Assembly: GCA_028286565.1 (NCBI GenBank)
Contig: JAQBRH010000004.1
Span: 217,567-281,566 of the forward strand
Direction of reading: 5' to 3'
DNA: 64,000 nucleotides
Source: Parcubacteria group bacterium
GTDB taxonomy: Bacteria > Patescibacteriota > Minisyncoccia > Phycocordibacterales > Zambryskibacteraceae
In this document: piece after piece, positions 22,073-40,977 of the stretch
Layout: every line of letters begins with the position of its first letter
Numbering within the stretch: the stretch's first letter is position 1
The notes under the pieces: model-generated
Database searches by the model: none
The model's input: the letters and a program-made list of their open reading frames with translations, nothing else
Told to the model about the DNA's origin: nothing
Made by a program: the position numbers and the translations under genes

Positions 22073-22097
22073 CTACATATTGTACTATACTTACCCG

Positions 22098-24418: not shown

Positions 24419-24419
24419 T

Positions 24420-25309: not shown

Positions 25310-25340
25310 TACAGTAGTATCTCTTGGTCGGTCCGAATTT

Positions 25341-25412: not shown

Positions 25413-25424
25413 CAAACAAAAATC

Positions 25425-25450
25425 CTCCGCTTCGGGCGGAGTGGTTTTGT
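25425..25450 (+). terminator. Rho-independent terminator after tRNA-Arg
   Basis: CTCCGCTTCGGGCGGAG followed by TGGTTTTGTTTG. Confidence 0.65.
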
Positions 25451-25545
25451 TTGTGTAGAGGAATCGAACGAGGAGGGGTCGGGAGGAGAGACTCCTCCCG
25501 TGGAGGAAGGATTGGGAAAACCGAGGGTTTCCCAGGGGTGAGATA

Positions 25546-25560
25546 TCCTACCGGGAACAC
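25546..25560 (+). repeat. Direct repeat of the tRNA-Arg(TCT) 3' end (TCCTACCGGGAACAC), an att-like footprint
   Basis: It is identical to 25399-25413. The intervening ~130 bp contain the terminator hairpin, an inverted T-arm-like GGAATCGAAC and the palindrome GGGAGGAGAGACTCCTCCC. Confidence 0.6.
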
Positions 25561-25657
25561 CGTTATCAACAACTCTTGCCGAACGTCAAATTGCGTGGTT
25601 ATTTTCATTGTATAATTATGGGGTCGAACTATTAAAATTAAAGGCTAAATATTCATT

Positions 25658-26035
25658 ATGGGAAAGACATCAGCTTCTGTGTTCGGATGGGTGCTCGTCG
25701 TTGTAGGCGTTTTGGGATTTATCCCTAACCCGATCGTCGGATCTGGCGGCATCTTTGTCACCGATCTGCTTCATAACCTCGTGCACATTATCTCAGGTGC
25801 GATCTTCCTCTGGGCGGCATACAGCGCTCCGATGAAAGCGGGCGCGGTTATGAAGACCTTCGGAGTCATTTACCTCCTCCTCGCAGTTCTCGGATTCTTC
25901 TCTTCAGGAGACATGCTCCTCGGTCTCATTTCCTCGAATATGGCGGATACGTATCTTCATCTGGTGCTCGGTATTGTCTTCGTTCTCGCGGGCGTCAAGG
26001 CCGGCAAGGCCATGGCTCCTCAGCCAATGATGTAA
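25658..26035 (+). CDS. DUF4383-family small integral membrane protein
   Basis: 125 aa with 4 TM helices and a WVLVVVGVLGFIPNP...LLHNLVHIISG pattern. Confidence 0.65.
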   Translation: MGKTSASVFGWVLVVVGVLGFIPNPIVGSGGIFVTDLLHNLVHIISGAIFLWAAYSAPMKAGAVMKTFGVIYLLLAVLGFFSSGDMLLGLISSNMADTYLHLVLGIVFVLAGVKAGKAMAPQPMM

Positions 26036-26096
26036 TCTCCTCGGACACCCTGCGGGTTTCCGACGCTTCGCTGCCTTCCGGCAAATCCGGTGCAAA

Positions 26097-26129
26097 ACAA
26101 AAACCACCCTGTTGGGTGGTTTTTGTTTT
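26097..26129. terminator. Bidirectional rho-independent terminator
   Basis: AAAACCACCCTGTTGGGTGGTTTTTGTTTT. Confidence 0.7.
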
Positions 26130-26131
26130 AG

Positions 26132-26213
26132 TGAGCACGGAGGGATTTGAACCCTCAAGCCTTGCGGCATACGGTTCTGAACCGTACGCGTATACCGATT
26201 CCGCCACGTGCTC
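26132..26213 (-). tRNA. tRNA-Leu (anticodon CAG)
   Basis: 82-nt type II tRNA: acceptor GAGCACG/CGTGCTC, anticodon stem UACGG/CCGUA with loop UUCAGAA, a 13-nt variable arm, and T-arm GAGGGTTCAAATCCCTC. Confidence 0.8.
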
Positions 26214-26252
26214 GTACCAAGAGAATACATTATATGCTAGTATCCTTCCAAC

Positions 26253-26325
26253 GGGCGATTAGCTCAGTTGGTAGAGCAACTCATTTACACTGAGAAGGTC
26301 ACAGGTTCGAGTCCTGTATCGCCCA
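26253..26325 (+). tRNA. tRNA-Val (anticodon TAC)
   Basis: Acceptor GGGCGAT/ATCGCCC, D-arm GCTCAGTTGGTAGAGC, anticodon loop UUUACAC, T-arm ACAGGTTCGAGTCCTGT. Confidence 0.8.
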
Positions 26326-26332
26326 CACTCAT

Positions 26333-27103
26333 ATGGATCTCACGCCTTTTATCATTTATGAAGACGAAGATATTCTCTGCTTGAACAAGCCGGCGGGTAT
26401 TGTCGTGCACGGAGACGGCCGGACAAAGGAGCCTTCGGTATCCGAATGGCTGGTGGAAAAATACCCGGAAGCCAAGGGAGTGGGAGAGATGATCCGGCTT
26501 GAAGCCGGGCTCAACGCGGACGGCTCCATGGCCGAAGGGAAGATCCTCGATCGTTCGGGCGTGGTACACCGCTTGGACCGCGAGACCTCGGGGGCGCTCC
26601 TCTTGGCCAAGACCCAAAAAGGTTTCGAACACCTTAAATCCCAATTCTTGGAGCGCACCATCCAAAAAAGTTATTTTGCCTTTGTGTATGGCAGCGTGAA
26701 GGAAGATCACGGCACTCTCTCGATGCCCATAGGCAAGAGCCCGGTAGATTTTCGCAGGTATTCGGCGAGCCGAGGCGCGTTCGGTGATATGAGGGATGCG
26801 GTCACTCATTTTCAAGTGATGAAGCGGGCCGAAGGAGTAACTCTCCTCGAGGCTCGCCCGAAGACCGGACGCACTCACCAGATCCGCGTCCATTTTCAGG
26901 CTCTCCAGCGCCCGGTCGTCTGCGACTCTCTCTACGCGGCTTCCAAGCCCTGCCTCCTCGGATTCAAGCGTTTGGCCCTCCACGCCCGCAAGGTCACCTT
27001 CAGTAACCTCGACGGTGAGCCGACGACGGTGGTCGCCGACTTTCCGGAGGACTTTTTACATGCTTTTGAGGAGATAGGCTATGTGCCAAAGGAGTTGTCA
27101 TAG
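26333..27103 (+). CDS. RluA-family pseudouridine synthase (RluD/RluC-like)
   Basis: Catalytic motif HRLDRETSG and a GRTHQIRVH motif. 256 aa. Confidence 0.85.
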   Translation: MDLTPFIIYEDEDILCLNKPAGIVVHGDGRTKEPSVSEWLVEKYPEAKGVGEMIRLEAGLNADGSMAEGKILDRSGVVHRLDRETSGALLLAKTQKGFEHLKSQFLERTIQKSYFAFVYGSVKEDHGTLSMPIGKSPVDFRRYSASRGAFGDMRDAVTHFQVMKRAEGVTLLEARPKTGRTHQIRVHFQALQRPVVCDSLYAASKPCLLGFKRLALHARKVTFSNLDGEPTTVVADFPEDFLHAFEEIGYVPKELS

Positions 27104-27135
27104 GGACGGGGTTGTGTTAGATTATTCGGACATTT

Positions 27136-27543
27136 ATGAATACAGTGCATTCACCGGTGAAGGTAGACGAACGAAAGAAACTCGACTTTAGGTCGGGGGA
27201 CACCGTTCGCGTCTGGCAAAAGATCCAGGAAAAGGGCAAAACCCGACTCCAGGCCTTCGAAGGACTCGTCCTCGCCCGAAAGCACGGCCAGGAAGCCGGA
27301 GCCACCTTCACCGTTCGCCGCGTCGCCTCAGGCGTCGGTGTCGAGAGGATCTATCCGCTCTTTTCCCCGATGATCGACAAGATCGAAGTGGTCAAGCGCT
27401 CATCCGTCCGCCGCTCCAAGCTCTATCACATCCGTGATAAGGCAGCCAAGGATATCCGCCGCCAGATGCGAAACACTCGTATGGCAAAGGATCCAGAAGT
27501 TGGGGCCGAGCCGGCGGTCGAAACAGAAGAAGCCAAAGCATAA
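27136..27543 (+). CDS. rplS: 50S ribosomal protein L19
   Basis: [33 protein letters not shown]...[11 protein letters not shown] is the canonical L19 sequence. Confidence 0.9.
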
Positions 27544-27565
27544 TCGCCCCTCGGGCGATTTGTTG
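27543..27565 (+). terminator. Rho-independent terminator of rplS
   Basis: ATCGCCCCTCGGGCGAT followed by TTGTTG. Confidence 0.6.
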
Positions 27566-27599
27566 AAATACGGGGTTTAATTTGGTACTCTTCACTCAC

Positions 27600-27681
27600 G
27601 CTCGGGTGGCGAAATTGGTAGACGCACTACCTTGAGGTGGTAGCGCCGAGAGGCGTGCTGGTTCAAATCCAGTCCCGAGCA
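27600..27681 (+). tRNA. tRNA-Leu (anticodon GAG)
   Basis: 82-nt type II tRNA: acceptor GCTCGGG/CCCGAGC, anticodon stem CUACC/GGUAG with loop UUGAGGU, a long variable arm, and T-arm GCTGGTTCAAATCCAGT. Confidence 0.8.
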
Positions 27682-27776
27682 CACTTCGACTCACTTCGTT
27701 CGCTCAGTGTAAACACTGGGCGAATTAGGTATGAGGAGAAGTACCCTGAGCTTGTCGAAGGGCATATAATTAATCC

Positions 27777-28031
27777 ATGGGTTGGTATGTATATATTGCC
27801 AAAGCAAGGACCGGACACTATTACGTCGGAATAACTACAGATCCAGATTCTAGAATAATTAAGCATAATTCTGGGCAGGGTTCTCAGATGGCAAAACAGC
27901 AAGGCCCATTCGAATTGATGTATCGATCAAAAGATTTGGGTAGTAAATCTGTGGCGCGCAAGAGGGAAGTTCAAATAAAAAAGTGGACTAAGGAAAAGAA
28001 AGATAGATTAATAAATGGTGAATGGGCCTAA
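27777..28031 (+). CDS. GIY-YIG nuclease family protein (YhbQ/UPF0213-like)
   Basis: WYVYIAKARTGHYYVGITTDPDSRIIKHNSG is a GIY-YIG core. 84 aa. TATAAT lies 8 nt upstream of the ATG. Confidence 0.7.
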   Translation: MGWYVYIAKARTGHYYVGITTDPDSRIIKHNSGQGSQMAKQQGPFELMYRSKDLGSKSVARKREVQIKKWTKEKKDRLINGEWA

Positions 28032-28061
28032 TTTGTGTTAAAAAGATATGGTTTCTCTAAT

Positions 28062-28134
28062 GGTGGCTATGGTGTAACGGTTAACACTCGAGCTTGTGGA
28101 GCTTGCAATCAGGGTTCGATTCCCTGTAGCCACC
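28062..28134 (+). tRNA. tRNA-His (anticodon GTG, with extra 5' G-1)
   Basis: G-1 + acceptor GTGGCTA/TAGCCAC, anticodon stem CGAGC/GCUUG with loop UUGUGGA, T-arm CAGGGTTCGATTCCCTG. Confidence 0.85.
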
Positions 28135-29721
28135 CCTAATGTTTCTTATTCTAATAGTGTCCCTAAAGGATTTATTCTTTTGGGCAAACATCCTTTCATG
28201 AGGGACGGGTTTGTGCTTGTTGCTGAAGCATATGGTCCCTGAGGCCACCAAAGCCTCAATTACAGGGCTTGGAACTGCCGTGACGAGTTTCCGGTTAGCC
28301 ACCTCAAAACGTTCCCAGAATAGGCTTATGTAGATCCTCTTAAGCTCTGGTGGAGCCTCCTGGTAGGACTGACCTATATTCTTGGCAAGGTGAACTATCT
28401 GCTGGATTGTGTCCACTTTGATGTTCCTGCTTTTCTCAAGTTTTATCAGCTCCTCGTCGCAAGTGTAGATTGCTTCTCGCTGCTTAAGTTTGATCCGAGT
28501 GAAGTCGCTATCATCTAGAATGCCGGAGACAAGTTTTTCTTCCGCCACAGCAAGCTTCTGTTCCGCACTAGACTTAACAGCAAGAATCTTTCTTTTCTCT
28601 CGGATAACATCTCGCTTTTTTAGATCATATATAAACTGCACACGGGTAAGTAGCTTTTCAATAAATTCTGGCGAGAATTCAATGCCCGTGAATAGCTCCT
28701 CAACAGCTATCTCAATATCAGCTGCTCTGACGCTGCGATCCTCATCAGAGATGATTCCAGGCTTTTGTTTACTTGTAAGATATGGACGGTAATAGGTCTT
28801 GTCTTTCTTCGGATGAGTTTCTCCTATAAAGCGGAGTCCGCTTACTGAGGAGAATATATATCCCCGCAAGAGGAAGTCGTATTTTCTTCTTCTGCAGGCG
28901 TGGTGATTATGGTCATCGCAGACCTCTTGGCAACGATCAAAGATGTCTTTGGTCGTGAGTGGGGGATGTTTGCCGATTTGCTCCATCTCCCTCCAACGCA
29001 TAATGCCGTAATAGAATGGATTGCGGATAAGTCGTAGTAGATTCGCAACGCTGAGCATCCCGCCAGTTCTCGACACAAGTCCTTTCTTCTTGAGTTCCTC
29101 ACCAAGCTCGAGCATGGAGTAAGAACCGGTTGAATATCTTTGAAAGAGTTCGGTTATAAGAGAACCCTTCATTTCATCCAGAATAATTATTCTCTTGTCT
29201 GGGTTGTCTGGTGCTCCGGCATTGAGATATCCGACAGGAACTTTGGTAACCCACCAGCCATCTCTGAACCTCTGCTCCATACTTTTAATAGTTTTCCTTG
29301 AGGTAATCTGTGACTGGTACTGGTTAATCAACGCTATAACGCCATCTTGCACTTCGCCCTCAATTGATTCATCAAGGCCAGGTTGATTTACCGAAATAAG
29401 CTTTACCCCTTTCCGTTTCAGAAGTGCTTTGATTGAAAGATGATCAAGCATATTTCTCGCAAGTCTATCGGTGTCGAGAACGTATACTGCACCAACCCTT
29501 TCATCTTCTTGAACACGTACAAGCAGTTCTTGTAGTGCGGGTCTGTTGGTATTCCTCGCTGTTTTTCCTAGGTCTTTGTAGACTCCATCCTCAGCCAACT
29601 CATATTCCGTACTGGCTAAGATTGCCTTCTTTGAGAGATCAAGCTGCGTCTGGATAGAGTATCGACCCTCACCGGCCTGTTCCTCAGTAGAAACTCTGCA
29701 GTAGATAAGGGCCTTTTCCAT
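28081..29721 (-). CDS. Large serine recombinase (site-specific integrase)
   Basis: N-terminal resolvase domain ALIYCRVSTEEQ (catalytic Ser), a recombinase domain and a Cys-rich zinc ribbon (CDDHNHHACRRRKYD). 546 aa. The last ~18 codons are antisense to tRNA-His, so the true stop is uncertain. Confidence 0.85.
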   Translation of the reverse strand: MEKALIYCRVSTEEQAGEGRYSIQTQLDLSKKAILASTEYELAEDGVYKDLGKTARNTNRPALQELLVRVQEDERVGAVYVLDTDRLARNMLDHLSIKALLKRKGVKLISVNQPGLDESIEGEVQDGVIALINQYQSQITSRKTIKSMEQRFRDGWWVTKVPVGYLNAGAPDNPDKRIIILDEMKGSLITELFQRYSTGSYSMLELGEELKKKGLVSRTGGMLSVANLLRLIRNPFYYGIMRWREMEQIGKHPPLTTKDIFDRCQEVCDDHNHHACRRRKYDFLLRGYIFSSVSGLRFIGETHPKKDKTYYRPYLTSKQKPGIISDEDRSVRAADIEIAVEELFTGIEFSPEFIEKLLTRVQFIYDLKKRDVIREKRKILAVKSSAEQKLAVAEEKLVSGILDDSDFTRIKLKQREAIYTCDEELIKLEKSRNIKVDTIQQIVHLAKNIGQSYQEAPPELKRIYISLFWERFEVANRKLVTAVPSPVIEALVASGTICFSNKHKPVPHERMFAQKNKSFRDTIRIRNIRGGYRESNPDCKLHKLEC

Positions 29722-29722: not shown

Positions 29723-29989
29723 TTAGGTTCTTAGTTTTCTCAGTGAATCGATACGCACCTGGTCTGCTTCTAGGAAGGGGACTACTCGTCGATTTTTAAT
29801 CGCTGTGAGTTGATCAATCAGAACATTAATCTCGTTTGCCGATGAGGTCTTATTCTCTATAGCTTTATCCGCTCTTTCTCGAACAAGTTTGGCGTTCTTC
29901 TTTGCTCTTGGAAGTGTAAGTAGAAGCATCAGGAATCCGATTGACACAAACAGGCCCACCACGAGGAATATGAAGATGATTATTAGCAT
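29723..29989 (-). CDS. Small membrane-anchored coiled-coil protein, hypothetical (coupled to integrase start)
   Basis: TM helix MLIIIFIFLVVGLFVSIGFLMLLL, then a charged helical tail. Its stop abuts the integrase ATG. Confidence 0.4.
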   Translation of the reverse strand: MLIIIFIFLVVGLFVSIGFLMLLLTLPRAKKNAKLVRERADKAIENKTSSANEINVLIDQLTAIKNRRVVPFLEADQVRIDSLRKLRT

Positions 29990-30252
29990 GAAGGGAGTAA
30001 CAAGCGGTTAATCCCTTGGTGAGATACAAAAAGCCCACCACGGGTAGAGCCCGAAGGCTCTCGTACCAGTTTCCCGATACGGCAGGTCATGCGACCCCAT
30101 GATGGGTTCTTTGAGCACGACCTGACTTTGAACCATGCCTTTGGATTGCTCCAAAGGGTTAGGTTCCCAACTGTTCCCAGCTGTAAGTTAATTATGCCTA
30201 ATTTCATGGTTTTTGCTATAAGTGATCATTCCGCCCATATATGTCTTTAAAT

Positions 30253-31305: not shown

Positions 31306-33576
31306 CTAGTACATAGGGTCATTTCTTTTTGGAAAATCTTTCTTGAAGAGTGATATTGCATCTTTTTGATTGTCGGGCAGTTTATCTAATTTCACTTTAT
31401 CTATTGTGGTTTTGATGTAATCGAGATCAAAAAATTCTTTGAGTGATGAAAATGATATTCTCGGTATTTGTTCAGTAATCATGCCAGATGATCTGAGAGA
31501 TATTGTTTTAAACTTTGATACAAACTCAGCCAAAGCAAGTCTGCTCTTTTTATAAGTATTAACAAAAGTCCTCATATCTTTTTCACCACCCCATTCCTTC
31601 CATCTATATAAAATGTAGACAAGGTTTTCTTGTTTTTTTAGAGATCCGTCTTTATATGCTTTATTTATTTTCTTAAGACCTTCCTTCGATAGCTCTGTTA
31701 TTTCTAGATTATCAAATAATTTTTCTCGGCCGGAAGATTCTTTTTCAGGTCTGGGGAAGTACGAGGAAATAAGGTGGATAGCCCCATATAAGGATTTAGT
31801 TTTTCGGATAGCTTCTCTGCTCGGTTCAAATATGGAAATTTCCCTATCTTTCAATGATTTTAGATAGAAATGGATTACCCTCATAAGATCTGTCTCGGCT
31901 CCGAAATCAAACATCTGATGGGACTTTATACCTGACACCTCATCTGCAATATCCAATAGAACAGTTAAGGTCTGAGCGATCTTATTTCCCTCGGTAGGGA
32001 ATTCTTTTACGTGATCTAGGATCGTAGTGAGAAACTTCCTGATGTCTTTCTTCTTGTCTTGAGTTTTGAGATAGCCGTGCAGCAGAGCAGAAAATTGTTT
32101 GTAGTCTCTAACTTTTTCTAGTGCTGAAGTAATCTCAGACGACCGCATCTCACCCTCAGGGACATTCAAGAAGAAGTAGGTATCAAAATGATCAGCTGAA
32201 CAAATCCTTCTATTCTGCCGCCACTCTTGTTCAATGGTATCGCCCATTGAGTAGTTCTCGAGCACCGATTTAAGGGGAGGGAAGAGTTCGACAAGAAAAT
32301 CTTTAATAAATGGATCAACTTTAACTAACTCAATTCCAATATTTTTCCTTATTTCATCAAGCCTTTTTGATTGATAGTCTCTATGATGGTTTAGCGTAGT
32401 GAACTCCTCTTTATTGTTAGATATGTAATTGTATAAATCAGGATAGAAGTGTTCGAGGGTTCTTATTCCGAGAAAATCAACAGGATCCACCTCGCTTGAT
32501 ATTAAGCTTGCCGCCATCGTCATTTGGCTCAGTGGCCTCTTGATTATTCTGAGATTCCCTCTTTTAAGAAAAGCTTTACCTAAGCCAGAATGATATAGTG
32601 TTGCCCATCTATTTTTATCCCATTTGCTTTCGGAGAAAAACTTTATCAGTTCGTCTAATTGAGCGAATAAGAATTCAGACAATTTTTTGTCATCAGCTTT
32701 TGGAAGCGAGATGGGAATTTGCACAATTTTCTCAATATATTCCATTCCCTCAATACCGTCCTTACTTATCATTTTTCCTACGGTGCCTACGTCCATAACC
32801 ATAAGATATATAAGATTTGGAAGATCTAAATTGATTTTTACTAGTTGGAATAGATTTCTTACCTCCTCCGGCGTGAGACGATCTATATCATCTATAATGA
32901 ACAGAATTTTGCGATCTCTTTTAGATAAAGTCTCTCTAATATCATTCTTTAGTTGGTTAAGCGTTTTCTCTGTTAAAGAAGATTTTTTCTTATAGAAATC
33001 CTCAGCCATAGATACAAGCCCTTCGATAAAGGTAAGAGATTCTAAAATTAAAATAAGAATTATTGTTCCTACGTAGGCGATAGGGCTAAATGCAAAAATT
33101 TTATCTAGTATCACAACTCCCGTAAGCCCAAGAATTGGGAGCCATAGCCTGATAATAGGAAGAAAAGCTTTGTCTTTGATTTTAGTTATTGTTCCTAAAT
33201 ACAATTTTACAAGACCAAGCTGCCTAGCTATTTCCTTGTCTATTTCATTATTTTTCTGTCCCAGCTCTTTACCAACCTCTAATAGAAAATTCTGGACCAA
33301 GTCTCCTTGGTTGGAGAATATCCAAGGGTTAAACTCTATAATTGTTGGGATCTTGTCCTGATCGATATCCTCCTCAAATTTATCAGGGTGATTATAAAAA
33401 TCTTTAATGAAATTGACGACAGAGGTCTTTCCATCACCCCATTTTGCATATAAACCAATTACAAGACTGTCGGAGTCCTTCCAAGATAGGATGTCTTTTG
33501 CGATACGCTTAGCAAAGCCTTTTCGGCCAAGGAGGTCTTCCTCAACTGTCTCTACCGCTTTATCAGAAAAAGCCAT
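31306..33576 (-). CDS. KAP-family P-loop NTPase (membrane-inserted NTPase domain)
   Basis: Walker A GLYAKWGDGKTSV, two TM helices inserted after the P-loop (LPIIRLWLPILGLTGVVIL / IAYVGTIILILILESL), Walker B ILFIIDDIDRL, and a long helical C-terminus. 756 aa. Confidence 0.8.
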   Translation of the reverse strand: MAFSDKAVETVEEDLLGRKGFAKRIAKDILSWKDSDSLVIGLYAKWGDGKTSVVNFIKDFYNHPDKFEEDIDQDKIPTIIEFNPWIFSNQGDLVQNFLLEVGKELGQKNNEIDKEIARQLGLVKLYLGTITKIKDKAFLPIIRLWLPILGLTGVVILDKIFAFSPIAYVGTIILILILESLTFIEGLVSMAEDFYKKKSSLTEKTLNQLKNDIRETLSKRDRKILFIIDDIDRLTPEEVRNLFQLVKINLDLPNLIYLMVMDVGTVGKMISKDGIEGMEYIEKIVQIPISLPKADDKKLSEFLFAQLDELIKFFSESKWDKNRWATLYHSGLGKAFLKRGNLRIIKRPLSQMTMAASLISSEVDPVDFLGIRTLEHFYPDLYNYISNNKEEFTTLNHHRDYQSKRLDEIRKNIGIELVKVDPFIKDFLVELFPPLKSVLENYSMGDTIEQEWRQNRRICSADHFDTYFFLNVPEGEMRSSEITSALEKVRDYKQFSALLHGYLKTQDKKKDIRKFLTTILDHVKEFPTEGNKIAQTLTVLLDIADEVSGIKSHQMFDFGAETDLMRVIHFYLKSLKDREISIFEPSREAIRKTKSLYGAIHLISSYFPRPEKESSGREKLFDNLEITELSKEGLKKINKAYKDGSLKKQENLVYILYRWKEWGGEKDMRTFVNTYKKSRLALAEFVSKFKTISLRSSGMITEQIPRISFSSLKEFFDLDYIKTTIDKVKLDKLPDNQKDAISLFKKDFPKRNDPMY

Positions 33577-33654: not shown

Positions 33655-33966
33655 ATGAAAAAGGTTGTTGTATATGTGCCCCTAACCCACACCGATCAAG
33701 TTCGGGAGGCTATCGGGCAGGCTGGAGGCGGGCAGCTCGGGAAGTACGCCTTCTGTAGCTTCTCTACACGGGGTATAGGGCGTTTTAAGCCTCTGGAAGG
33801 GGCTAACCCTCATATTGGCTTTGTGGGTCAAATGGAGGCTGTAGAGGAAGAAAGAATCGAGGTTTCCGTGGAAGATAGTCTGGTGGAGAGTGTGATATCC
33901 GCCATTAAAAAGGTACATCCGTACGAGGAAGTGGCTTTGGACATATATAATTTAGAGCAAGTATGA
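33655..33966 (+). CDS. Small PII/CutA-like (Nif3 C-terminal-like) protein
   Basis: 103 aa. The C-terminal HPYEEVALDIYNLE resembles the Nif3/CutA HPYE(E/V)P motif, with a beta-alpha-beta pattern. The call is tentative. Confidence 0.4.
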   Translation: MKKVVVYVPLTHTDQVREAIGQAGGGQLGKYAFCSFSTRGIGRFKPLEGANPHIGFVGQMEAVEEERIEVSVEDSLVESVISAIKKVHPYEEVALDIYNLEQV

Positions 33967-34595
33967 AAATCACCAAACTTGGTCATTGCTGCCTACTGCT
34001 AGAAACTAAGGGCCAGAGAATTCTTACAGACCCAGGTAGCTATACCGTAGACGCACATTCTCAACTCACAAACGTCGATTACATTTTGTATACCCACGAG
34101 CATCAGGATCATTACCACCTTGAGTCATTGAAAGTGCTTATTGGAAAAAATCCACAAGCAATTATCTACACTAATGATTCCGTAAGTGAGCTTCTTACCA
34201 AAGAGGGAATAGCTCACACGCTTGTCCGGAACGGAGAAGCGGTATCTCTCGGGGAAATTTCTGTGGTTGGTATTGGTGAAGAACACGCCCAAATGCACAG
34301 CTCGATACCTTTATCGTCCAACATTGGTTTCCTAATTGATGAGAGATTATGGTATCCAGGCGATGCCTTCACTAATCCAGAAAGAGAGATAGAGATCCTC
34401 GCCCTTCCCGTGTCTGGCCCGTGGATGAAGATAGGTGAGGCAATAGATTACGCATTTCTTCTTAAGCCTAAAAAAGCTTTTCCGGTTCATGATGGTACAC
34501 GTTTTGGATCTGCACATAATCTCCCCGCGAAGCTTCTTCCGGCGAATGGCATCGAGTTTGTAGTAATGGCTGAGGGTGACAGCAGGGAATTCTAA
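33963..34595 (+). CDS. Metallo-beta-lactamase-fold hydrolase
   Basis: HEHQDH (HxHxDH) zinc motif, a downstream His, and the WYPGD...PVHDG motif. Confidence 0.75.
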   Translation: MKITKLGHCCLLLETKGQRILTDPGSYTVDAHSQLTNVDYILYTHEHQDHYHLESLKVLIGKNPQAIIYTNDSVSELLTKEGIAHTLVRNGEAVSLGEISVVGIGEEHAQMHSSIPLSSNIGFLIDERLWYPGDAFTNPEREIEILALPVSGPWMKIGEAIDYAFLLKPKKAFPVHDGTRFGSAHNLPAKLLPANGIEFVVMAEGDSREF

Positions 34596-34608
34596 TATAA
34601 TCAAAACC

Positions 34609-35295
34609 ATGACTGAACTTGAAAGGAATTTCCAAAAATTTAAGAAGATTACAAGAGAAGAGTTCTTTATTGCTGAAGAAATTAAAAAGCATGTTGAGAT
34701 TAAAGATACTGATACGATTTTGGATGTCGGCTGTGCTGATGGTAATCTCTCAAAGTCATTAACTAAAGACTCAACAAACATTACATTTCTAGATGTTGAT
34801 GAGTTTAATTTCTCTCCTCAGGAGAAATTTATCCGCTCTTCGTTTGAGGAGGTAGAGTTAGGCGAGAAGTTTGATCTGATTTTAAGTTCGCATGTCTGGG
34901 GACACTTCTACAGGAACAACACCTTTGGTTTCTGCTTTAAGAAAGCCCATGATCTGCTCAAAGAAGGCGGAAAGCTGATCGTGGTGCATAACTCTAATAA
35001 AGACTTTACCGGGAAGCTCATCGAATTCTCGAAGACATTATTCGATCAAATAGAGTTCGATGTCTTTCTCGATGAGTTCTTAGAAGGTGCAGATTATGAG
35101 GAATCCTACTTCGATGTGAATTTGAAAGCGGAAACATTCAGAGAACTGGCAGAACTTGTCCAGGTATTATTGGTTGTTCCAGATGCTATCTATTACTCGA
35201 AGATCGAAGAGATGACCCGCTTCTTAGAAGCTAATCTGGAAAAACCGGAGTTCGCTATTAATCAAAGACTTTTAGTAATAAAGAAGAAAGGTTAG
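34609..35295 (+). CDS. Class I SAM-dependent methyltransferase
   Basis: Motif I ILDVGCADGNLS. I chose the ATG at 34609, 7 nt after a TATAAT box; the ORF-track start at 34576 is in frame and overlaps the upstream gene. Confidence 0.7.
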   Translation: MTELERNFQKFKKITREEFFIAEEIKKHVEIKDTDTILDVGCADGNLSKSLTKDSTNITFLDVDEFNFSPQEKFIRSSFEEVELGEKFDLILSSHVWGHFYRNNTFGFCFKKAHDLLKEGGKLIVVHNSNKDFTGKLIEFSKTLFDQIEFDVFLDEFLEGADYEESYFDVNLKAETFRELAELVQVLLVVPDAIYYSKIEEMTRFLEANLEKPEFAINQRLLVIKKKG

Positions 35296-35312
35296 GCGAA
35301 TGAGGCTATAAA

Positions 35313-36206
35313 ATGACTTACGACAATAATTGGTTCAAACAACGGGCTCTTAATTCTTTCCGCAGGATAGGTCCTAACGTCTGGGATTATTCTGATTCTT
35401 TACTTCTTTATATTTCTTCAGGAGTGGAGAAATACGAATCTCTACAAGAGGAGGATACTCCTTATTTTAAGTTAGTGATTAAACCAGAACGCGAATATTT
35501 AGAATCAATAGCAAAGGATGTTATTAACGCCTTACCTTCGAATTTTGAGTATGTTGATCTTGGTCCAGGCACTGAACACAAGGAACAATTCTTTTTCGAT
35601 GAGCTTAAGAAGCAGGGGAAGAAGTTTACTTATATTCCTGTAGATATTAGCGAGCATTACCTCAAGCTGGCTGAACAACACGCTATCGATCAAGGCATTC
35701 CTGTCAGCACAATACAGTCTTCTTTTGAAGAAGCGGCTGAAGTATTAGGAGAAGGAAGCGTGCCACGCTTTGTAAATATTGGGCTCACTTTCTCTAACTA
35801 TGAACCTCAGGTAATTCTAAAACTACTTAAAACTATTGCAGGCAAGGGAGGGTTCGTTTTTATCAATAGCCAAATGAGAGATAGGTTAGATATAAATAGT
35901 TTACAACGAGTATATGCAGAAGATGCTTTGACTTTGGCGGACGATAAACTCAAGCTAGTCGGTTTAGATCCTAATGCTGATGTGACCCCAAGAAAAGCAG
36001 ATGATGCTATTAAGGTATGGTGTTCAGTTATTAAGCCCTCTCTCGATCTTGAGACGATTGGAGTTGTGGAGGGCGATAAATTGCTTGTTTTTCAATCCCT
36101 CCGATATACACCAGAGAAGCTTAAGGAAGAACTAGAAAAAGCTTCGGAGAACTATCAAGTGTTTGATACAGGTGCTTCTTTCATTGCTGGGTTAATCAAA
36201 ACCTAA
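35313..36206 (+). CDS. EgtD-like (Methyltransf_33/DUF323) SAM-dependent methyltransferase
   Basis: YVDLGPGTEHKEQFFFDEL, YIPVDISEHYL and NIGLTFSNYEP resemble the EgtD-family motifs (ELGSGSSxKTR, VPVDVS, GSTIGN). Confidence 0.5.
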   Translation: MTYDNNWFKQRALNSFRRIGPNVWDYSDSLLLYISSGVEKYESLQEEDTPYFKLVIKPEREYLESIAKDVINALPSNFEYVDLGPGTEHKEQFFFDELKKQGKKFTYIPVDISEHYLKLAEQHAIDQGIPVSTIQSSFEEAAEVLGEGSVPRFVNIGLTFSNYEPQVILKLLKTIAGKGGFVFINSQMRDRLDINSLQRVYAEDALTLADDKLKLVGLDPNADVTPRKADDAIKVWCSVIKPSLDLETIGVVEGDKLLVFQSLRYTPEKLKEELEKASENYQVFDTGASFIAGLIKT

Positions 36207-36447
36207 ACCAAAGCAGGGAAGGAGGAAATAAAATCCAGCTTCTCTTTTACTCCTTCCAGGTATATTCTGTCGGAGAAGATATCCAGAATAATTTTCCTAT
36301 CGGGACCCAAATTTGCGAAGCTAATTTGGCGTAGGCTACAGGGAATCGAAAGACGGAGGCGCGAAGCCGATCCAGCAGGATCGCAGCCGAGTCGGGGTCG
36401 CGGAAATTTTCTGCCGAAAATTATCCGTGCCCGATGAACCCCTTATT

Positions 36448-36531
36448 CTGTAGCCACCCAAATTTTTAGGCCTATAAATAAAGGTAGTTTTTGGTACCCA
36501 GATGGGGATTAGAACCTGATATACTCACAAG
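36448..36531 (+). repeat. Cassette boundary/promoter module R1 (att-like CTGTAGCCACCC + ACCCAAATTTTT + GATATACT -10 box 6 nt before the ATG)
   Basis: It is related to R2 at 38172-38276 (~80% identity over 75 bp). Confidence 0.55.
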
Positions 36532-37248
36532 ATGAAAGAGGATATTTATTTTGAAAGTGGAAGTCTTAAACTTGTTGGCACTTTATATAAAGCGCCTAAG
36601 GAGAAAGCCTCAGCGCTTTTAATTGCAGGAGGGGGGAACACCCATCGACACAAAGGATATTATCCTCCGTGGCAAAACTTTCTTTTGGAGAACGGAGTCA
36701 CAACATTCAACTTTGATTTTCGAGGGGTAGGAGATGCAGAAGGAAATTTAAATGAAAGCAATCTAAATACAAGAGCAGAAGATGCGAAAGCTGCCCTTGA
36801 AATTCTGAAGCAACATTCTGATACAGAAAATATATTTGTAGTCGGTGTAAGCATGGGCGGGCCTGTGGCGATAAGGATAGTAGATCATTCAATTAAAGGA
36901 ATGCTTCTGGTTGTTGCCGCTGCATATTCAATGGAAGCGCGAGATAAGAATTTTGGCCCCGAGTTTTCAGAAGCGATACGAAAACCAGACAGCTGGAAAG
37001 ATTCACCTGATTTTAAAGACTTAGAGAGATACATGGGCGACACATTTTTGCTATATACGGATAGTGATGAAGTAGTTCCTCAGGGTATAAGTTTGAACTA
37101 CGAAGAGATCATAAAAGCAAAAGGGGGACAGGTGCTTGCCCTTAAGGATGCCAACCATCGAACCTGGAAGGAAGGGCAACAAGAATATGCCTTAAGGGAG
37201 ATGTCGAATTTTATCCTTGAGAAGAGCCTATCAAAGGTATACTCATGA
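36532..37248 (+). CDS. Alpha/beta-hydrolase fold protein
   Basis: Nucleophile elbow GVSMGG, then a downstream Asp and His (DSDEVV...ANH). 238 aa. Confidence 0.7.
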   Translation: MKEDIYFESGSLKLVGTLYKAPKEKASALLIAGGGNTHRHKGYYPPWQNFLLENGVTTFNFDFRGVGDAEGNLNESNLNTRAEDAKAALEILKQHSDTENIFVVGVSMGGPVAIRIVDHSIKGMLLVVAAAYSMEARDKNFGPEFSEAIRKPDSWKDSPDFKDLERYMGDTFLLYTDSDEVVPQGISLNYEEIIKAKGGQVLALKDANHRTWKEGQQEYALREMSNFILEKSLSKVYS

Positions 37249-37625
37249 GTATGATAAGTTTCATTTTAAATCTTCCTTGGACTATTCTCGGTGTATTGGC
37301 AGGGATTGTGTCGATACCTAAAAAGTTTCAAGGCAATAAAAATCCTTTCGCTTTAGTATTTACTGTAAAAAGTTTCTGGTGGTATACATGGCAACCCAAG
37401 ATGAGGGGAGCGCGAGCTATGACGATAGGGCATGTGGTTCTTTTGAGCCCAAATATTTTGGAGCACGATCTAGAACATGAACTTATACACGTAGAGCAAG
37501 CTGTGCGTATTCCACTTATACATCCAGTTCTCTATGCAATCGAAAGTTTTAGGAAGGGCTATCGAGAGAATAAATACGAAAAGGAAGCTTATGGTAGGGC
37601 AGGAAACATTTATATAGAAAAATGA
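37245..37625 (+). CDS. Small membrane-anchored HExxH zincin-like protein (paralog A)
   Basis: N-terminal TM, WWYTW, then LEHDLEHELIHVEQ (HExxH plus a downstream Glu). Its start overlaps the upstream stop (ATGA). Its 3' ~360 bp are ~98% identical to 38918-39275. Confidence 0.6.
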   Translation: MSMISFILNLPWTILGVLAGIVSIPKKFQGNKNPFALVFTVKSFWWYTWQPKMRGARAMTIGHVVLLSPNILEHDLEHELIHVEQAVRIPLIHPVLYAIESFRKGYRENKYEKEAYGRAGNIYIEK

Positions 37626-38173
37626 CTGAAAAAGAAATTCTCAAGCTTATCCAAGAGGACTCATGGATGATGGAGACTTTACGTAAAGCAGAAAGTTTGA
37701 ATTTAAAAGATTGGGCTATTGGAGCGGGATTCATTCGAAATAAGATTTGGGATCACCTTCATGGATATACGGAAAGAGAATGGGGGAGCAGCGATGTGGA
37801 TCTGGTCTATTTTGATGAAGATGATAAGGGTGAGGAATATGATGAGAAGTTGTCTGAGAAGTTAAAGAGTGAGACAGGGACCAATTGGGAAGTGGTAAAT
37901 GAGCACCATGCTCACGTATGGAATAAGATTCCGCCTTACACTTCCGTTGAGGATGCAATTTCAAAGTTCCCTGAGACTGTAACCGCTATAGGTGTTCGCA
38001 TAAGAAATGAAGAAATAGAACTGATTACACCCTATGGAATTGAAGATAACGTGAGCATGATCATCCGACCAACGCCCATATTTGAAGACAAGATGGATAA
38101 GATCCGTGAGAGGGTGGCAAAGAAGGGTTGGATGGAAAAATGGCCTAAACTAAAGTATGCGGAGACCGAATAA
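37622..38173 (+). CDS. Nucleotidyltransferase-fold protein (minimal NTase, PF06042-like)
   Basis: GAGFIRNKIWD...SSDVDLVYFD, i.e. the G[GS] and DxD motifs of the Pol-beta superfamily. It is translationally coupled to the HExxH gene (ATGA overlap). Confidence 0.55.
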   Translation: MTEKEILKLIQEDSWMMETLRKAESLNLKDWAIGAGFIRNKIWDHLHGYTEREWGSSDVDLVYFDEDDKGEEYDEKLSEKLKSETGTNWEVVNEHHAHVWNKIPPYTSVEDAISKFPETVTAIGVRIRNEEIELITPYGIEDNVSMIIRPTPIFEDKMDKIRERVAKKGWMEKWPKLKYAETE

Positions 38174-38276
38174 AGTTCTAAACCCATCCACCCACCGACC
38201 CAAATTTTTTCAGGGCTATAAATAAGGTTAGTTTTTGCTACCCAGATGGGAATTTAGAAATGATATACTGAATTCT
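38172..38276 (+). repeat. Cassette boundary/promoter module R2 (AGTTCTAAACCCATCCACCCACCGACCCAAATTTTTT...GATATACT)
   Basis: Shares the AGTTCTAAACCCATCC boundary with R3, and the ACCCAAATTTTT..TATAAATAA..GTTAGTTTTTG..TACCCAGATGGG block with R1. Confidence 0.55.
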
Positions 38277-38810
38277 ATGAAAAGATTTTCAATCGTGATT
38301 CTTGTTCTCGTAGGTTTGAGCGCGGGTTACTGGTATAAAACCGGACATGTCGCACTGCAACCGGCGCTGTGGAAATCTGTTTGGATAGGTACAACGTACC
38401 CCCCGCTCTCTAATGGATTGTCTAGCAACGGCGCGCTCACAGTTGGAGACGCAAGATATGCCACATATGTTATAGACGAGATGAAAACTCCAGACGGCAC
38501 CGAACTATGGTTAGCAAGCATGGTAAAGGGAGTGAACGGAAAGCCTATTTTTACCGTTACTGACGCCCTACCTTTTTTCTCTGGCGCTGATGAAAACGGA
38601 AATATGTCGATTTGGGGAGTATGCGGTTATTCGCCTGACAAAGTACTTAATATCGATAATTCAATTGTCGCTCAGATAAGTGCCAGAGACTATGTATCCA
38701 GTGGGCCCATTAATGCAAAGAAAGCATGGAAGGCGAATAATGCCACTGGAAAATTTGAGTCGATTCCGCCAGTAGGAATCTCCTGTATTAATGAAGGAGG
38801 GCAGGAGTGA
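38277..38810 (+). CDS. Membrane-anchored/secreted hypothetical protein
   Basis: Start at MKRFSIVILVLVGLSAGYWYK, an anchor resembling that of gene 40405. No domain recognised. Confidence 0.45.
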   Translation: MKRFSIVILVLVGLSAGYWYKTGHVALQPALWKSVWIGTTYPPLSNGLSSNGALTVGDARYATYVIDEMKTPDGTELWLASMVKGVNGKPIFTVTDALPFFSGADENGNMSIWGVCGYSPDKVLNIDNSIVAQISARDYVSSGPINAKKAWKANNATGKFESIPPVGISCINEGGQE

Positions 38811-38830
38811 TAAAACACTCCCTTCATTCG

Positions 38831-38900
38831 AAACTAGTTCTAAACCCATCCGCCCGACGACCCGGTTTTCAATCTGTCGACCCAGGGGTATACTCTGAGT
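38831..38900 (+). repeat. Cassette boundary/promoter module R3 (AGTTCTAAACCCATCCGCCCGACGACCCGGTTTTCAATCTGTCGACCCAGGGGTATACT)
   Basis: Nearly identical to R4 at 40349-40404; the TATACT box lies 6 nt before the ATG. Confidence 0.55.
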
Positions 38901-39275
38901 ATGATAAGTTTCGTTTTAAATCTTCCTTGGACCATTCTTGGTGTATTGGCTGCTATTGTTTCAATGCCTAATAAGTTTCGTACTAACCCGAGCCCTTTCG
39001 CTTTGGTATTTACTGTAAAAAGTTTCTGGTGGTATACATGGTTACCAAAGAGGAAAGGAGCACGAGCCATGGCGATAGGGCGTGTGGTTCTTTTGGGCCC
39101 AAATATTTTGGAGCACGATCTAGAGCATGAACTTATACACGTAGAGCAAGCTGCGCGTATTCCACTTATACATCCAGTTCTCTATGCAATCGAAAGTTTT
39201 AGGAAGGGCTATCGAGAGAATAAATACGAAAAGGAAGCTTATGGTAGGGCAGGAAACATTTATATAGAAAAATGA
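38901..39275 (+). CDS. Small membrane-anchored HExxH zincin-like protein (paralog B)
   Basis: MISFVLNLPWTILGVLAAIVSMP...LEHDLEHELIHVEQ. The C-terminal half is nearly nucleotide-identical to paralog A. Confidence 0.6.
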   Translation: MISFVLNLPWTILGVLAAIVSMPNKFRTNPSPFALVFTVKSFWWYTWLPKRKGARAMAIGRVVLLGPNILEHDLEHELIHVEQAARIPLIHPVLYAIESFRKGYRENKYEKEAYGRAGNIYIEK

Positions 39276-39829
39276 ACGAAGATCTTGTTTACATCGACCA
39301 ATACGGCCTCCTTGGTAGTAATTTCTATTGGCACCATAGAGCGGATAAGGGACTGTCTGATCAAGATCTGATCGAAGCCGAACTGACTAATGATCGAGTG
39401 TTGGTGCACAGAGATATTATCGATAAATTAATTTCGATAGATAAAGAATTCCAGAAGAGGGGGTATAGGCTCTATATCAAAGAAGGATACCGTTCAAAAA
39501 AGCTCTACGAGATGATCTACAAGCGACGGGTAGAAATGTTCGGCAAAGAGGAAACAGATAGACTCTTGAACATGAAGGATATGCCGCATTCTTTTGGCAA
39601 GTCTATTGATGTATCCCTGAGAGATATTACCGGTACAGAAGAAGTGCCAATGCGTAACAAGGCGGATGGGACCGGTGCTTTATTTATTAATTTCTATAAA
39701 GGCAAGGAAGACGAACAAAGTAAGAAGTATCAAGAGCTGCAAGATTTTGTGCTTTCAGTAATGCGTGCTCATGGATTTAAGCTTGGAACTAAGAACGAAT
39801 ATTTCCACTTTGATCACAAAGAGTTCTAA
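39272..39829 (+). CDS. Peptidase M15 (VanY/D-Ala-D-Ala carboxypeptidase-like, LAS zinc-binding) family protein
   Basis: PHSFGKSIDVS (H-x2-G-x-S-I-D) and EYFHFDH (second His), as in VanX/VanY. It is coupled to the HExxH gene (ATGA overlap). Confidence 0.55.
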   Translation: MNEDLVYIDQYGLLGSNFYWHHRADKGLSDQDLIEAELTNDRVLVHRDIIDKLISIDKEFQKRGYRLYIKEGYRSKKLYEMIYKRRVEMFGKEETDRLLNMKDMPHSFGKSIDVSLRDITGTEEVPMRNKADGTGALFINFYKGKEDEQSKKYQELQDFVLSVMRAHGFKLGTKNEYFHFDHKEF

Positions 39830-39865
39830 ATTCATCTCCGCGGGGGTATACTTCTTCTCAATCAT

Positions 39866-40333
39866 ATGGATGTACACGTAAGGCGATCTAGGAACGGGCA
39901 GGGCATTTTTGCAAATAGAGATTTTTCTGCACAAGAAGTTATATATGAAGTGAAAGGAAAATTGATCACATGTGGCGAAGATGAGGATATCGATCAGAGG
40001 GTCCGGGATAATACATTTAGATTCGACAAAGAGAAATATCTAAGTCCGGAAGGCGAATTGGGCGATTTCCAGAATCATTCGTGCGAACCGAATGCCGGAG
40101 TTTTCAAAAGTAAGAAAAAACTTTTTATTAAGGCGATTAAAAATATTAAAGAAGGCAAAGAGATCCTTATAGACTATTCCACGATCCTTGCTACAGACGA
40201 CACCTGGACGATGAAATGTAATTGCGGAAGCGCAAACTGCAGGGGGATCATAAAGAAATTCAAGAATATACCAAAAGTAACCAAAGAAAAGTATCTCGCC
40301 TTAGGTATTGTCCCAGAGTACATCTTAAATTAA
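39866..40333 (+). CDS. SET-domain protein (putative protein lysine methyltransferase)
   Basis: NHSCEPN, EILIDYS (ELxxDY) and the post-SET Cys cluster CNCGSANCRG. It has its own GGGGGTATACT promoter box at 39842-39852. Confidence 0.75.
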   Translation: MDVHVRRSRNGQGIFANRDFSAQEVIYEVKGKLITCGEDEDIDQRVRDNTFRFDKEKYLSPEGELGDFQNHSCEPNAGVFKSKKKLFIKAIKNIKEGKEILIDYSTILATDDTWTMKCNCGSANCRGIIKKFKNIPKVTKEKYLALGIVPEYILN

Positions 40334-40348: not shown

Positions 40349-40404
40349 ATCATCCGTCCGACGACCCGGTTTTCAATCTGTCGACCCGGGGGTATACTTT
40401 AGGC
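40349..40404 (+). repeat. Cassette boundary/promoter module R4
   Basis: CATCCGTCCGACGACCCGGTTTTCAATCTGTCGACCCGGGGGTATACT; 52 of 55 nt match R3. Confidence 0.55.
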
Positions 40405-40977
40405 ATGAAAAAACAACAAGGATTTGCCACCCCCCTTACGCTGGGGTTACTAGTAGTTTTGCTTGTGGGAGGGGGGTATTATTGGATGAATCACAGGTCT
40501 TCTTCGAATTCTCCGGCCAAGACGCTCAGCATAACCGCCTCGGACTGGAGCACCTACAAATGGATGGGAATCGAACCGACGCATATTTCCTTTGCAGAGG
40601 CGGCGACTCCCGCTCTTGCCATCACGGGGTGGAAAGGTTTTGTGGATTTTAATTCAGACGGTCCGGCGGGGAACCTGAGAGTTGAAACTTTTCAAAAAAC
40701 AAATTCTGAAAAGGACTTTCCTTCATATGTAGCGGCCAACATGGGGATCTTTGAGTCAGTGAAGTTTTTCCAAGTCGCGGGCCACGATGCAGCAAGGATA
40801 CGACACGCATCCAAAGATCAATACGACGCGGACGTCGCCTGGTACTTCATAGATGCGGGCGATAAGTCTATCATTGCCATCTCTACCAGCGGAGACAGCA
40901 TGTATCTCTACGACGATGATCAAAACGGCATGTCATCAAGGGATAGGTACATCGCCGGGTACCAGCCTGCGAAGTAA
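40405..40977 (+). CDS. Membrane-anchored/secreted hypothetical protein
   Basis: N-terminal anchor LLVVLLVGGGYYW, then a soluble domain with no recognised fold. 190 aa. Confidence 0.45.
   Translation: MKKQQGFATPLTLGLLVVLLVGGGYYWMNHRSSSNSPAKTLSITASDWSTYKWMGIEPTHISFAEAATPALAITGWKGFVDFNSDGPAGNLRVETFQKTNSEKDFPSYVAANMGIFESVKFFQVAGHDAARIRHASKDQYDADVAWYFIDAGDKSIIAISTSGDSMYLYDDDQNGMSSRDRYIAGYQPAK

Follow-up and report, generated by a model that had tools for sequence, protein, structure and literature searches.

The window analysed here is a stretch of 64,000 nucleotides from a Parcubacteria group bacterium, and the subject of our analysis is an open reading frame (ORF) at 39866..40333 of its forward strand that encodes a protein of 155 amino acids from an ATG start codon and matches the Pfam SET family (PF00856). 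This gene is listed by NCBI as JWN89_643, a "hypothetical protein" on a 308-kb contig of a Parcubacteria group metagenome-assembled genome (MAG), and its product (P0001) is identical to the SET protein of the window. The original prediction for this locus had placed the start at 39842, i.e., with 24 additional nucleotides upstream (39842-39865) that contain the sequence GGGGTATACT at 39843-39852. Pfam SET matches the protein over its full length (model positions 1-105 of 105) with an E-value of 7.5e-17 and 62.1 bits compared to a cut-off of 22.4, and SET is the single domain detected in a Pfam scan.

All hallmark motifs of SET methyltransferases can be read in the protein. The GxG motif for binding of S-adenosylmethionine (SAM) is present as NGQG (residues 10-13; 39893..39904, forward strand), aligns with HGRGLF of MLL1, and has glycines G11 and G13 that are conserved in at least 90% of the family alignment. 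It is followed on the same strand by NHSCEPN (residues 70-76; 40073..40093), the SAM and pseudoknot motif in which C73 would be the fourth zinc ligand, and by EILIDYS (residues 99-105; 40160..40180), an ELxF/YDY motif with Y104 as the catalytic tyrosine that aligns with ELTYDY of MLL1. Finally, CNCGSANC (residues 118-125; 40217..40240, forward strand) reads as the CxCx4C zinc cluster of a post-SET region (C118, C120, and C125) and was aligned to the post-SET of both MLL1 and SETD2. Judged from the sequence, the combination of these motifs in one short ORF is far beyond what chance would be expected to produce.

Searching the protein as a single sequence against PDB sequences with phmmer returned the SET domain of KMT2A/MLL1 as top match (E-value of 1.1e-10; 44.7 bits), followed by yeast Set2, KMT2B, C, and D, and then NSD2 and SETD2, and with a profile of 29 family members the match to the KMT2A SET domain improved to an E-value of 2.5e-23. 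An AlphaFold2 model built on the alignment of these 29 members reached a predicted local distance difference test score (pLDDT) of 90.1 and a predicted template modeling score (pTM) of 0.85 with no segment below 50; its first beta-strand begins at residue 3. Foldseek matched this model to MLL3, MLL1, MLL4, Set2, NSD1, SETD2, and ASH1L with a probability of 1.00 and TMq values of 0.63 to 0.70, and based on model and structural matches we confidently assign the predicted structure to the SET beta-fold. Full-length profile match, motifs, and fold model thus agree with the 155-aa SET protein with canonical motifs that had originally been proposed, and two of the checks suggested at that time, a profile search with PF00856 and structure prediction, came out in support of a SET fold. 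Beyond this fold, the family alignment revealed a C-terminal tail of ca. 30 amino acids with the consensus LPKxxxxKYxxxxxVPxYIL (40241..40330, forward strand), which AlphaFold2 predicts to form two short helices (residues 137-146 and 151-154). None of the eukaryotic SET structures aligned past approximately residue 130 in the phmmer and profile searches of the PDB. Because the tail is conserved and eukaryotic SET domains end at around this residue, we suggest that the family can be defined at the sequence level by the combination of SET, post-SET, and the conserved helical tail.

Across 29 homologs that are 36% to 66% identical to the query, the residues G31, N70, H71, S72, C73, P75, N76, E99, D103, Y104, S105, W114, C118, C120, C125, and R126 are invariant, a set that includes the catalytic tyrosine and each of the four post-SET zinc ligands as well as the SAM and pseudoknot motif. 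Such invariance of catalytic and zinc-site residues is a sign of purifying selection. At the position known as the Phe/Tyr switch, which in MLL1 is occupied by the first tyrosine of ELTYDY, the window protein carries Ile102, and most family members have isoleucine or phenylalanine. Residues other than tyrosine at this switch are associated with multiple methylation of the same lysine, and dimethylation or trimethylation is therefore predicted for this family. The loop of the SET insert is acidic (EDEDID in the window protein with a family consensus of ED...D), and this conserved acidity makes a basic substrate plausible.

Homologs of the protein are numerous. A word-index search yielded 82 of them, mostly 155 to 166 amino acids long and all single-domain SET proteins, and a HMMER search of 1.84 billion cluster representatives (at 50% identity) matched 4,833 clusters at E-values of up to 1e-3, 967 at up to 1e-10, and 34 at up to 1e-30. 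Most of the top 150 representatives align from approximately residue 3 to 10 through residue 153 or 154. When scanning one genome per GTDB species, we found a relative in at least 591 of the 185,579 representative genomes. The original prediction had considered SET methyltransferases to be uncommon in bacteria and typical of symbionts and pathogens, which holds in a relative sense only, given these 591 or more genomes and the 4,833 clusters. Among the matches listed, the closest relatives (50% to 67% identity) are all bacteria of the candidate phyla radiation (CPR), and those of the species scan range from Paceibacterota, Saccharibacteria, Minisyncoccia, Parcubacteria, and Nomurabacteria (51% to 60%) over Betaproteobacteria/Burkholderiales MAGs (42% to 47%) and the DPANN archaea Woese-, Aenigm-, Micr-, and Nanoarchaeota (37% to 46%) to a band of 31% to 41% identity that comprises Gemmatimonadales, Spirochaetes, Verrucomicrobia, Bacteroidota, Desulfobacterales, Sphingomonas, Nitrotoga, Bdellovibrio, Methanosarcinales, and the cultured Ruegeria arenilitoris. 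Full-length relatives in free-living lineages, again among the matches listed, are found in the Ruegeria isolate, Sphingomonas, Gemmatimonadales, and Nitrotoga.

In a neighbor-joining tree without support values, the window protein falls within a clade composed entirely of CPR sequences while the remaining CPR and DPANN sequences are scattered, which indicates frequent transfer. Eukaryotic SET domains are ca. 27% identical to the window protein over residues 7-128, and for this reason we consider the gene to be of immediate prokaryotic origin and do not see it as having been captured recently from a eukaryote. Viral contigs of IMG/VR contain only distant relatives with at most 36% identity, cultured phage genomes gave no match, and a search of PHROGs returned only a weak match of unknown function; together with the lack of phage structural genes in the island around the SET gene (see below), these results led us to reject a phage origin. 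We note that four of the homolog loci (L054, L048, L080, and L086) each have two divergent stand-alone SET genes within ca. 2 kb of each other.

The surroundings of the SET gene differ from the rest of the window in nucleotide composition. Most of the window has a GC content of 52% to 57%, whereas the region from 28.1 to 40.4 kb drops to 33% to 50% (300-nt windows), and every gene between 28081 and 40333 has a GC content at third codon positions (GC3) of 0.33 to 0.50 compared to 0.64 to 0.73 for core genes on both sides (encoding a pseudouridine synthase, ribosomal protein L19, a transmembrane protein, ORF157, a sigma factor, and an ABC transporter). The SET gene itself has a GC content of 0.389 and a GC3 of 0.423, and the values step up from this 0.42 to 0.56 in the next gene (40405-40977) and then to 0.68. 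At the left border, where GC drops from 0.53-0.56 to 0.39-0.49, lies a tRNA-His(GTG) gene (28063..28136, forward strand; detected by ARAGORN and Rfam), and the 3' part of this tRNA gene is overlapped by the 3' end of a gene for a large serine recombinase of 546 amino acids (28081..29721, reverse strand) that matches the Pfam families Resolvase (2.5e-23) and Recombinase (9e-12) as well as the phage-type serine integrases of PHROG phrog_95 (E-value of 6.7e-69). Because this integrase abuts the tRNA-His gene and the whole block deviates in GC and GC3, we interpret the region, on the basis of its sequence features, as a tRNA-adjacent integrative island of ca. 12 kb with defense and accessory cargo. 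The SET gene would be its last clearly low-GC, foreign gene at the end far from the integrase, in agreement with the accessory placement that had originally been suggested. Neither conjugation genes nor phage structural genes were found in the island.

Close to the integrase, the island encodes a KAP-family P-loop NTPase of 756 amino acids (31306..33576, reverse strand) that resembles PifA over its full length (Pfam KAP_NTPase with 2.5e-41; PADLOC PifA with 8.4e-76) and is a candidate for an abortive infection (phage exclusion) function in a CPR bacterium. A LOOT RNA (Rfam RF03000; 30046-30165, reverse strand; 85.5 bits compared to a gathering score of 46.4) is located between this gene and the integrase gene, which is accompanied by a small ORF; the RNA has the strand of the integrase and is overlapped by a probably spurious ORF call at 29983-30207. 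The main text of the paper behind Rfam's LOOT family holds no description of this motif. The tRNA-His gene is the last of eight tRNA genes (Lys, Arg twice, Ser, Leu twice, Val, and His) spread over ca. 16 kb (12587-28136) upstream of the island.

Upstream of the SET gene, an array of accessory genes with a GC3 of 0.33 to 0.50 occupies 33655..39829 on the same (forward) strand. According to Pfam and NCBIfam, its order is a P-II-like ORF (weak match), a metallo-beta-lactamase (MBL)-fold hydrolase, two class-I methyltransferases, an alpha/beta hydrolase (36532-37248, forward strand), a first HExxH protein, a nucleotidyltransferase (NTase) of the NTP_transf_6 family (37622-38173, forward strand; E-value of 1.9e-51), an exported protein without assigned function, a second HExxH protein, an M15/VanX-like peptidase (39272-39829, forward strand), and finally SET. 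The hydrolase, NTase, and peptidase neighbors of the original prediction are thus real, though the peptidase match is weak (E-value of 1.2e-5, just under the Pfam cut-off) with its metal-binding H-x6-D and ExxH motifs present. The two HExxH proteins (motif HDLEHELIHVEQ; ca. 124 amino acids) are predicted membrane proteins encoded on the forward strand at 37245-37625 and 38901-39275; they share 88% amino acid identity and 94% DNA identity over 287 nt, and each copy overlaps the start of a different enzyme gene, i.e., NTP_transf_6 and the M15/VanX-like peptidase, respectively. This family has no Pfam model and more than 100 homologs, of which those with a named source come from Patescibacteria, and a 77% identical relative from the same sample is located two genes upstream of an APH-like kinase gene (L143).

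Several intergenic segments of the array are repeated. A 61-nt promoter-like repeat (type B, family D4) at 40351..40411 of the forward strand, just 3' of the SET stop codon, is 89% identical to 38847-38907 and is a putative promoter of the next gene (40405-40977). This pair of type B repeats brackets the segment from the second HExxH gene over the M15-like peptidase gene to SET, and further modules in front of unrelated array genes are those of type A at 36463-36525 and 38207-38269 and a partial type B module at 39823-39853. None of the intergenic repeats folds better than shuffled sequence (z-scores of +1.1 to +1.5). Their arrangement suggests an array assembled by recombination between shared regulatory sequences, and the modules may be either shared regulatory sites or the recombination scars of a mosaic. 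Integron cassettes were rejected as an explanation, since the only recombinase is the large serine recombinase and neither IntI nor attC-like hairpins were found; the "cassette array" that had initially been described is therefore better understood as an array of accessory enzymes and not as an integron.

The sequence GGGGTATACT at 39843..39852 (forward strand) is a -10-like motif located 13 nt upstream of the SET start codon, with no Shine-Dalgarno sequence, and the window contains it three times without mismatch (38885, 39843, and 40389), in each case on the forward strand just before a start codon. Six matches were found when allowing up to one mismatch, a number that was reached in none of 100 shuffles. 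At many genes of both island and core, a TATACT/TAGTAT-like box is found 6 to 8 nt before the ATG and without Shine-Dalgarno sequence (e.g., at 33576, 36532, 38277, 38901, 40405, and 43522), which suggests that leaderless mRNAs could be widespread in this Parcubacteria genome. Upstream of SET, a TATACT box is preceded by GGGG while the -35 region is poor, and a generic scan for sigma-70 promoters and terminators around the gene gave counts equal to chance expectation. With its box at a distance of 13 nt and not 6 to 8 nt, the mRNA of SET could equally well have a very short leader or be leaderless. A promoter of its own, as originally proposed, appears plausible for SET, with the box and the missing Shine-Dalgarno sequence in favor of the leaderless type and the spacing and the chance-level promoter scan against it.

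Ten other genomic contexts of homologs were inspected, and their neighbors differ in each case with none repeating those of the window. Homolog P0019 has a CCA-adding enzyme on one side and genes without assigned function on the other, P0009 and P0022 adjoin a Na/Ca exchanger, P0062 is close to genes for ThsB_TIR, LexA, and a DNA methyltransferase, P0007 is near a NYN-domain gene, and P0008 is found among genes without assigned function. P0026, P0017, and P0033 are embedded in long same-strand runs of genes for small detoxification- or stress-type enzymes that comprise glyoxalase, glutathione S-transferase (GST), AHSA1, DUF1801, NUDIX, GNAT, VanZ, OmdA, and DUF1761 proteins. The SET arrays of the Saccharibacteria-like loci L004, L005, and L006 (P0026) and L145 (P0017) also include HAD and CYTH genes, and two different genomes have the local order of SET, OmdA-like, and DUF1761 in common.

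Clustering of the ORFs within 4 kb on each side at 85 loci revealed no conserved partner for the CPR subfamily, and the neighbor families that do recur are generic ABC and signaling proteins as well as deoxyhypusine synthase beside distant homologs. The original prediction had named housekeeping homologs in a conserved chromosomal context as the opposing scenario, and we instead found differing contexts without a shared partner in these 85 loci. When every protein of the island was searched by tblastn in 92 loci with homologs, only two of these loci gave matches, both to the serine recombinase and weak, so that the island as a unit does not appear to be common to the homolog loci. The setting of an array of small enzymes therefore recurs while the partner genes do not, and the gene neighborhood gives no clue to the SET substrate.

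Genes of the deoxyhypusine synthase family are found beside distant SET homologs at 6 of the 85 loci from unrelated phyla (L032, 4850-5989; L047, 4778-5749; L054, 7060-8085; L062, 1596-2669; L068, 8521-9528; and L073), which belong to Woesearchaeota, Nanohalarchaeota, Nitrotoga, Desulfobacterales, and Verrucomicrobiales. The copy at L054 was confirmed as PF01916 (E-value of 1.1e-33) and is flanked by the two SET genes of this locus (6001-6426 and 8101-8622), and the copy at L032 is located directly upstream of SET on the same strand. Deoxyhypusine synthase modifies a lysine of a translation factor, and a link of prokaryotic SET enzymes to the lysine modification of translation factors is possible, though the pattern is not seen in the window.

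We propose that the protein is a functional SET methyltransferase that depends on SAM, acts in the cytoplasm as a stand-alone enzyme, and is most probably a protein-lysine N-methyltransferase, with a gene that was acquired horizontally as cargo of the island, and we put the probability of this interpretation at roughly 60%. It builds on the identity of the SET protein, its intact motifs and fold, the distribution of the family, the compositional foreignness of the gene, and the anatomy of the island. From these observations we infer an active enzyme that would use lysine as acceptor, would methylate it multiply, and would find its target inside the cell; a cytoplasmic location is suggested by a first beta-strand that begins already at residue 3 and from the lack of any extra domain. 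During catalysis, SAM would be bound between the GxG and NHSCxPN motifs, the substrate lysine would enter a channel that the zinc cluster of post-SET (C73, C118, C120, and C125) closes, and the methyl group would be transferred beside the invariant Tyr104, with isoleucine or phenylalanine in place of tyrosine at the switch position possibly allowing a lysine to be methylated more than once. The gene would have entered a genome of 53% to 56% GC as cargo of the low-GC island of ca. 12 kb. As substrates we would expect one or few proteins of the bacterium's own cell that are plausibly basic, while eukaryotic histones seem less likely.

The original prediction had suggested an effector-like role, i.e., a SET protein secreted or injected into a host cell that methylates histones of a eukaryotic or archaeal host or nucleoid proteins of a bacterial one. 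Such a function has precedents in NUE, RomA/LegAS4, BtSET, and BaSET, which act on host histones (PMC3980110), and the gene is indeed accessory and horizontally acquired, its closest relatives are concentrated in host-dependent CPR bacteria and DPANN archaea among the matches listed, and the top structural matches are methyltransferases of histone H3K4 and H3K36. We nevertheless consider it rather unlikely, because a fold that starts at residue 3 leaves no room for an N-terminal leader of the Sec, Tat, or type III secretion system kind (though non-classical secretion is possible) and the protein has neither a nuclear localization signal (NLS) nor ankyrin repeats or other effector modules beside its only Pfam domain. 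Only the SET core aligns to the NCBIfam model NF043024 (T4SS_AnkI/LegAS4), with 22.3 bits compared to a cut-off of 550, and Pfam annotation of the neighbors revealed no secretion system genes beside SET. In addition, full-length relatives are encoded by free-living bacteria including the cultured Ruegeria, and the C-terminal tail is a conserved helical element that these free-living taxa also share. Even less support is found for a decaying passenger gene without current function, which might be expected at the edge of a mosaic island with duplicated segments; given the full-length reading frame, the intact catalytic residues and zinc ligands, and a length and start that match the homologs, we regard it as very improbable. 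Taken together, the original prediction is partly supported in that it was right about the identity and the accessory status of the gene, while it overstated the rarity of such proteins and the effector function is not supported.

Alternatively, the SET scaffold may serve to methylate a small molecule, either as in BurB of Burkholderia thailandensis, a bacterial stand-alone SET protein of 172 amino acids that acts as methionine S-methyltransferase by converting free methionine to S-methylmethionine (PMC12542666), or with another metabolite or xenobiotic as substrate. The family profile matches BurB at 1.8e-11 with an alignment that extends past post-SET into the tail, Foldseek aligned the model to BurB (PDB 9l4t and 9l4v; ca. 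20% identity in the structural alignment) with a TMq of 0.66, and MBL-fold hydrolase, methyltransferase, hydrolase, NTase, glyoxalase, GST, GNAT, and NUDIX genes are neighbors here and at several homolog loci. As a single sequence, however, the window protein matches BurB with only 21 bits (E-value of 0.0023) compared to 44.7 bits for a lysine methyltransferase, and the profile, too, scores KMT2A far better (2.5e-23). We found no bur or dimethylsulfoniopropionate (DMSP) genes and no genes for nonribosomal peptide or polyketide synthases within 12 kb on either side, and the full motif set of lysine methyltransferases including the post-SET zinc site is invariant, which together make a small-molecule substrate unlikely. 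The sister clade of Betaproteobacteria is not BurB-like either (34 bits), and orthology to BurB was rejected on such weak scores for both this clade and the query. We are similarly skeptical about a role in defense or resistance, in which SET would methylate a lysine of a cellular target such as a ribosomal protein or translation factor, or of a phage protein, to counter an antibiotic, a toxin, or a phage. The PifA-like abortive infection gene on the island, the resistance-like genes for an MBL-fold hydrolase, a weakly matched Erm-like methyltransferase, an NTase, and a VanX-like peptidase, the ThsB_TIR, LexA, and DNA methyltransferase genes near one homolog, and the deoxyhypusine synthase genes adjoining distant homologs would fit such a function, yet SET itself has no PADLOC match, no defense gene recurs beside homologs at the 85 loci, and the resistance-like annotations are weak, generic, and at the level of folds.

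A few points weigh against the protein-lysine methyltransferase that we propose and the island that would carry it. An acceptor other than a protein lysine is conceivable, given that the structural match to BurB (TMq 0.66) is about as good as those to lysine methyltransferases, and since a lifestyle attached to host cells is generally assumed for CPR bacteria, an extracellular target is possible. The tree discussed above was built by neighbor-joining without bootstrap support, and a literature search combining SET domain, Patescibacteria, and methyltransferase found no paper. With regard to the island, its right border lies between 40,334 and ca. 41,200 and is placed by composition only. Neither another copy of the tRNA-His 3' end nor any meaningful short repeat common to both ends of the island was detected; serine integrases need only few bases of identity between attachment (att) sites. 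Exact-protein look-ups of the flanking L19 and sigma factor led only to short contigs of the same sample, SRR13312974, and not to an island-free relative. We note that the Logan assembly of this sample (L141 and L142) breaks at ca. 27,630 inside a tRNA-Leu gene and resumes at ca. 41,935, and the absence of the island region from these flanking contigs could reflect repeats or strain heterogeneity.

In a wider perspective, prokaryotic SET proteins are numerous and almost none has a known physiological substrate. The CPR-centered subfamily described here, with its compact size of ca. 155 amino acids, complete catalytic apparatus, distinctive tail, and horizontal exchange, is a tractable entry to lysine methylation in ultra-small, host-dependent bacteria, although this particular copy shows nothing mechanistically unexpected and is a member of the known SET class. 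For annotation, we suggest that JWN89_643 be described as a SET domain-containing (putative protein-lysine) methyltransferase on an integrative island and not as a histone-targeting effector. A more far-reaching idea, which we consider improbable, is that of a mobile stand-alone SET lysine methyltransferase that circulates as shell-genome cargo in CPR bacteria and DPANN archaea and could methylate conserved machinery of the cell such as a ribosomal protein, translation factor, or nucleoid protein of either the producer or its host, resulting in protection or host manipulation. The detoxification- or resistance-like neighbors, the PifA-bearing island, and the deoxyhypusine synthase neighbors of distant homologs are compatible with this idea and do not establish it; if true, histone-targeting effectors would have a counterpart that acts between prokaryotes, or resistance could arise from a new mechanism of target protection.

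Compared to known systems, the island has the typical layout of tRNA-adjacent serine integrase islands, with an integrase abutting a tRNA gene, deviant GC and GC3, and defense as well as accessory cargo, and differs from them in that no att repeat was found and the right end is defined by composition. BurB shares the stand-alone architecture and similar size of the window protein but, unlike the latter, works within a biosynthetic gene cluster. RomA/LegAS4 of Legionella, NUE of Chlamydia, BtSET of Burkholderia, and BaSET of Bacillus anthracis are likewise bacterial SET proteins that have often been acquired horizontally, yet these nucleomodulins are larger, come from pathogens of eukaryotes, and have secretion signals, an NLS, or ankyrin repeats that the window protein lacks. 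More generally, the known bacterial SET effectors have host histones as their targets and are equipped with features for secretion and targeting, and SET genes occur in free-living bacteria too (PMC3980110).

With the KMT2 (MLL/SET1) and NSD/SETD2 enzymes, the window protein has in common the fold, the GxG, NHSCxPN, and ELxxDY motifs, and the CxCx4C zinc site of post-SET, but it has none of their pre-SET/AWS, N-SET, or chromatin-reader modules or WRAD partners, and relative to MLL1 it has isoleucine for tyrosine at the Phe/Tyr switch and the extra conserved tail of ca. 30 amino acids. To the best of our knowledge, the Parcubacteria host has no nucleosomes. Go1-SET of Methanosarcina mazei and cpnSET of Chlamydia pneumoniae are, like the window protein, small single-domain SET enzymes of prokaryotes, and Methanosarcinales and Methanomicrobiaceae encode 36% to 38% identical members of the wider family among the matches listed. 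We know of neither MC1 nor Hc1 in Parcubacteria. In their own organisms, Go1-SET is reported to methylate the DNA-binding protein MC1-alpha and cpnSET the DNA-binding protein Hc1, both of which are endogenous targets (PMC3980110).

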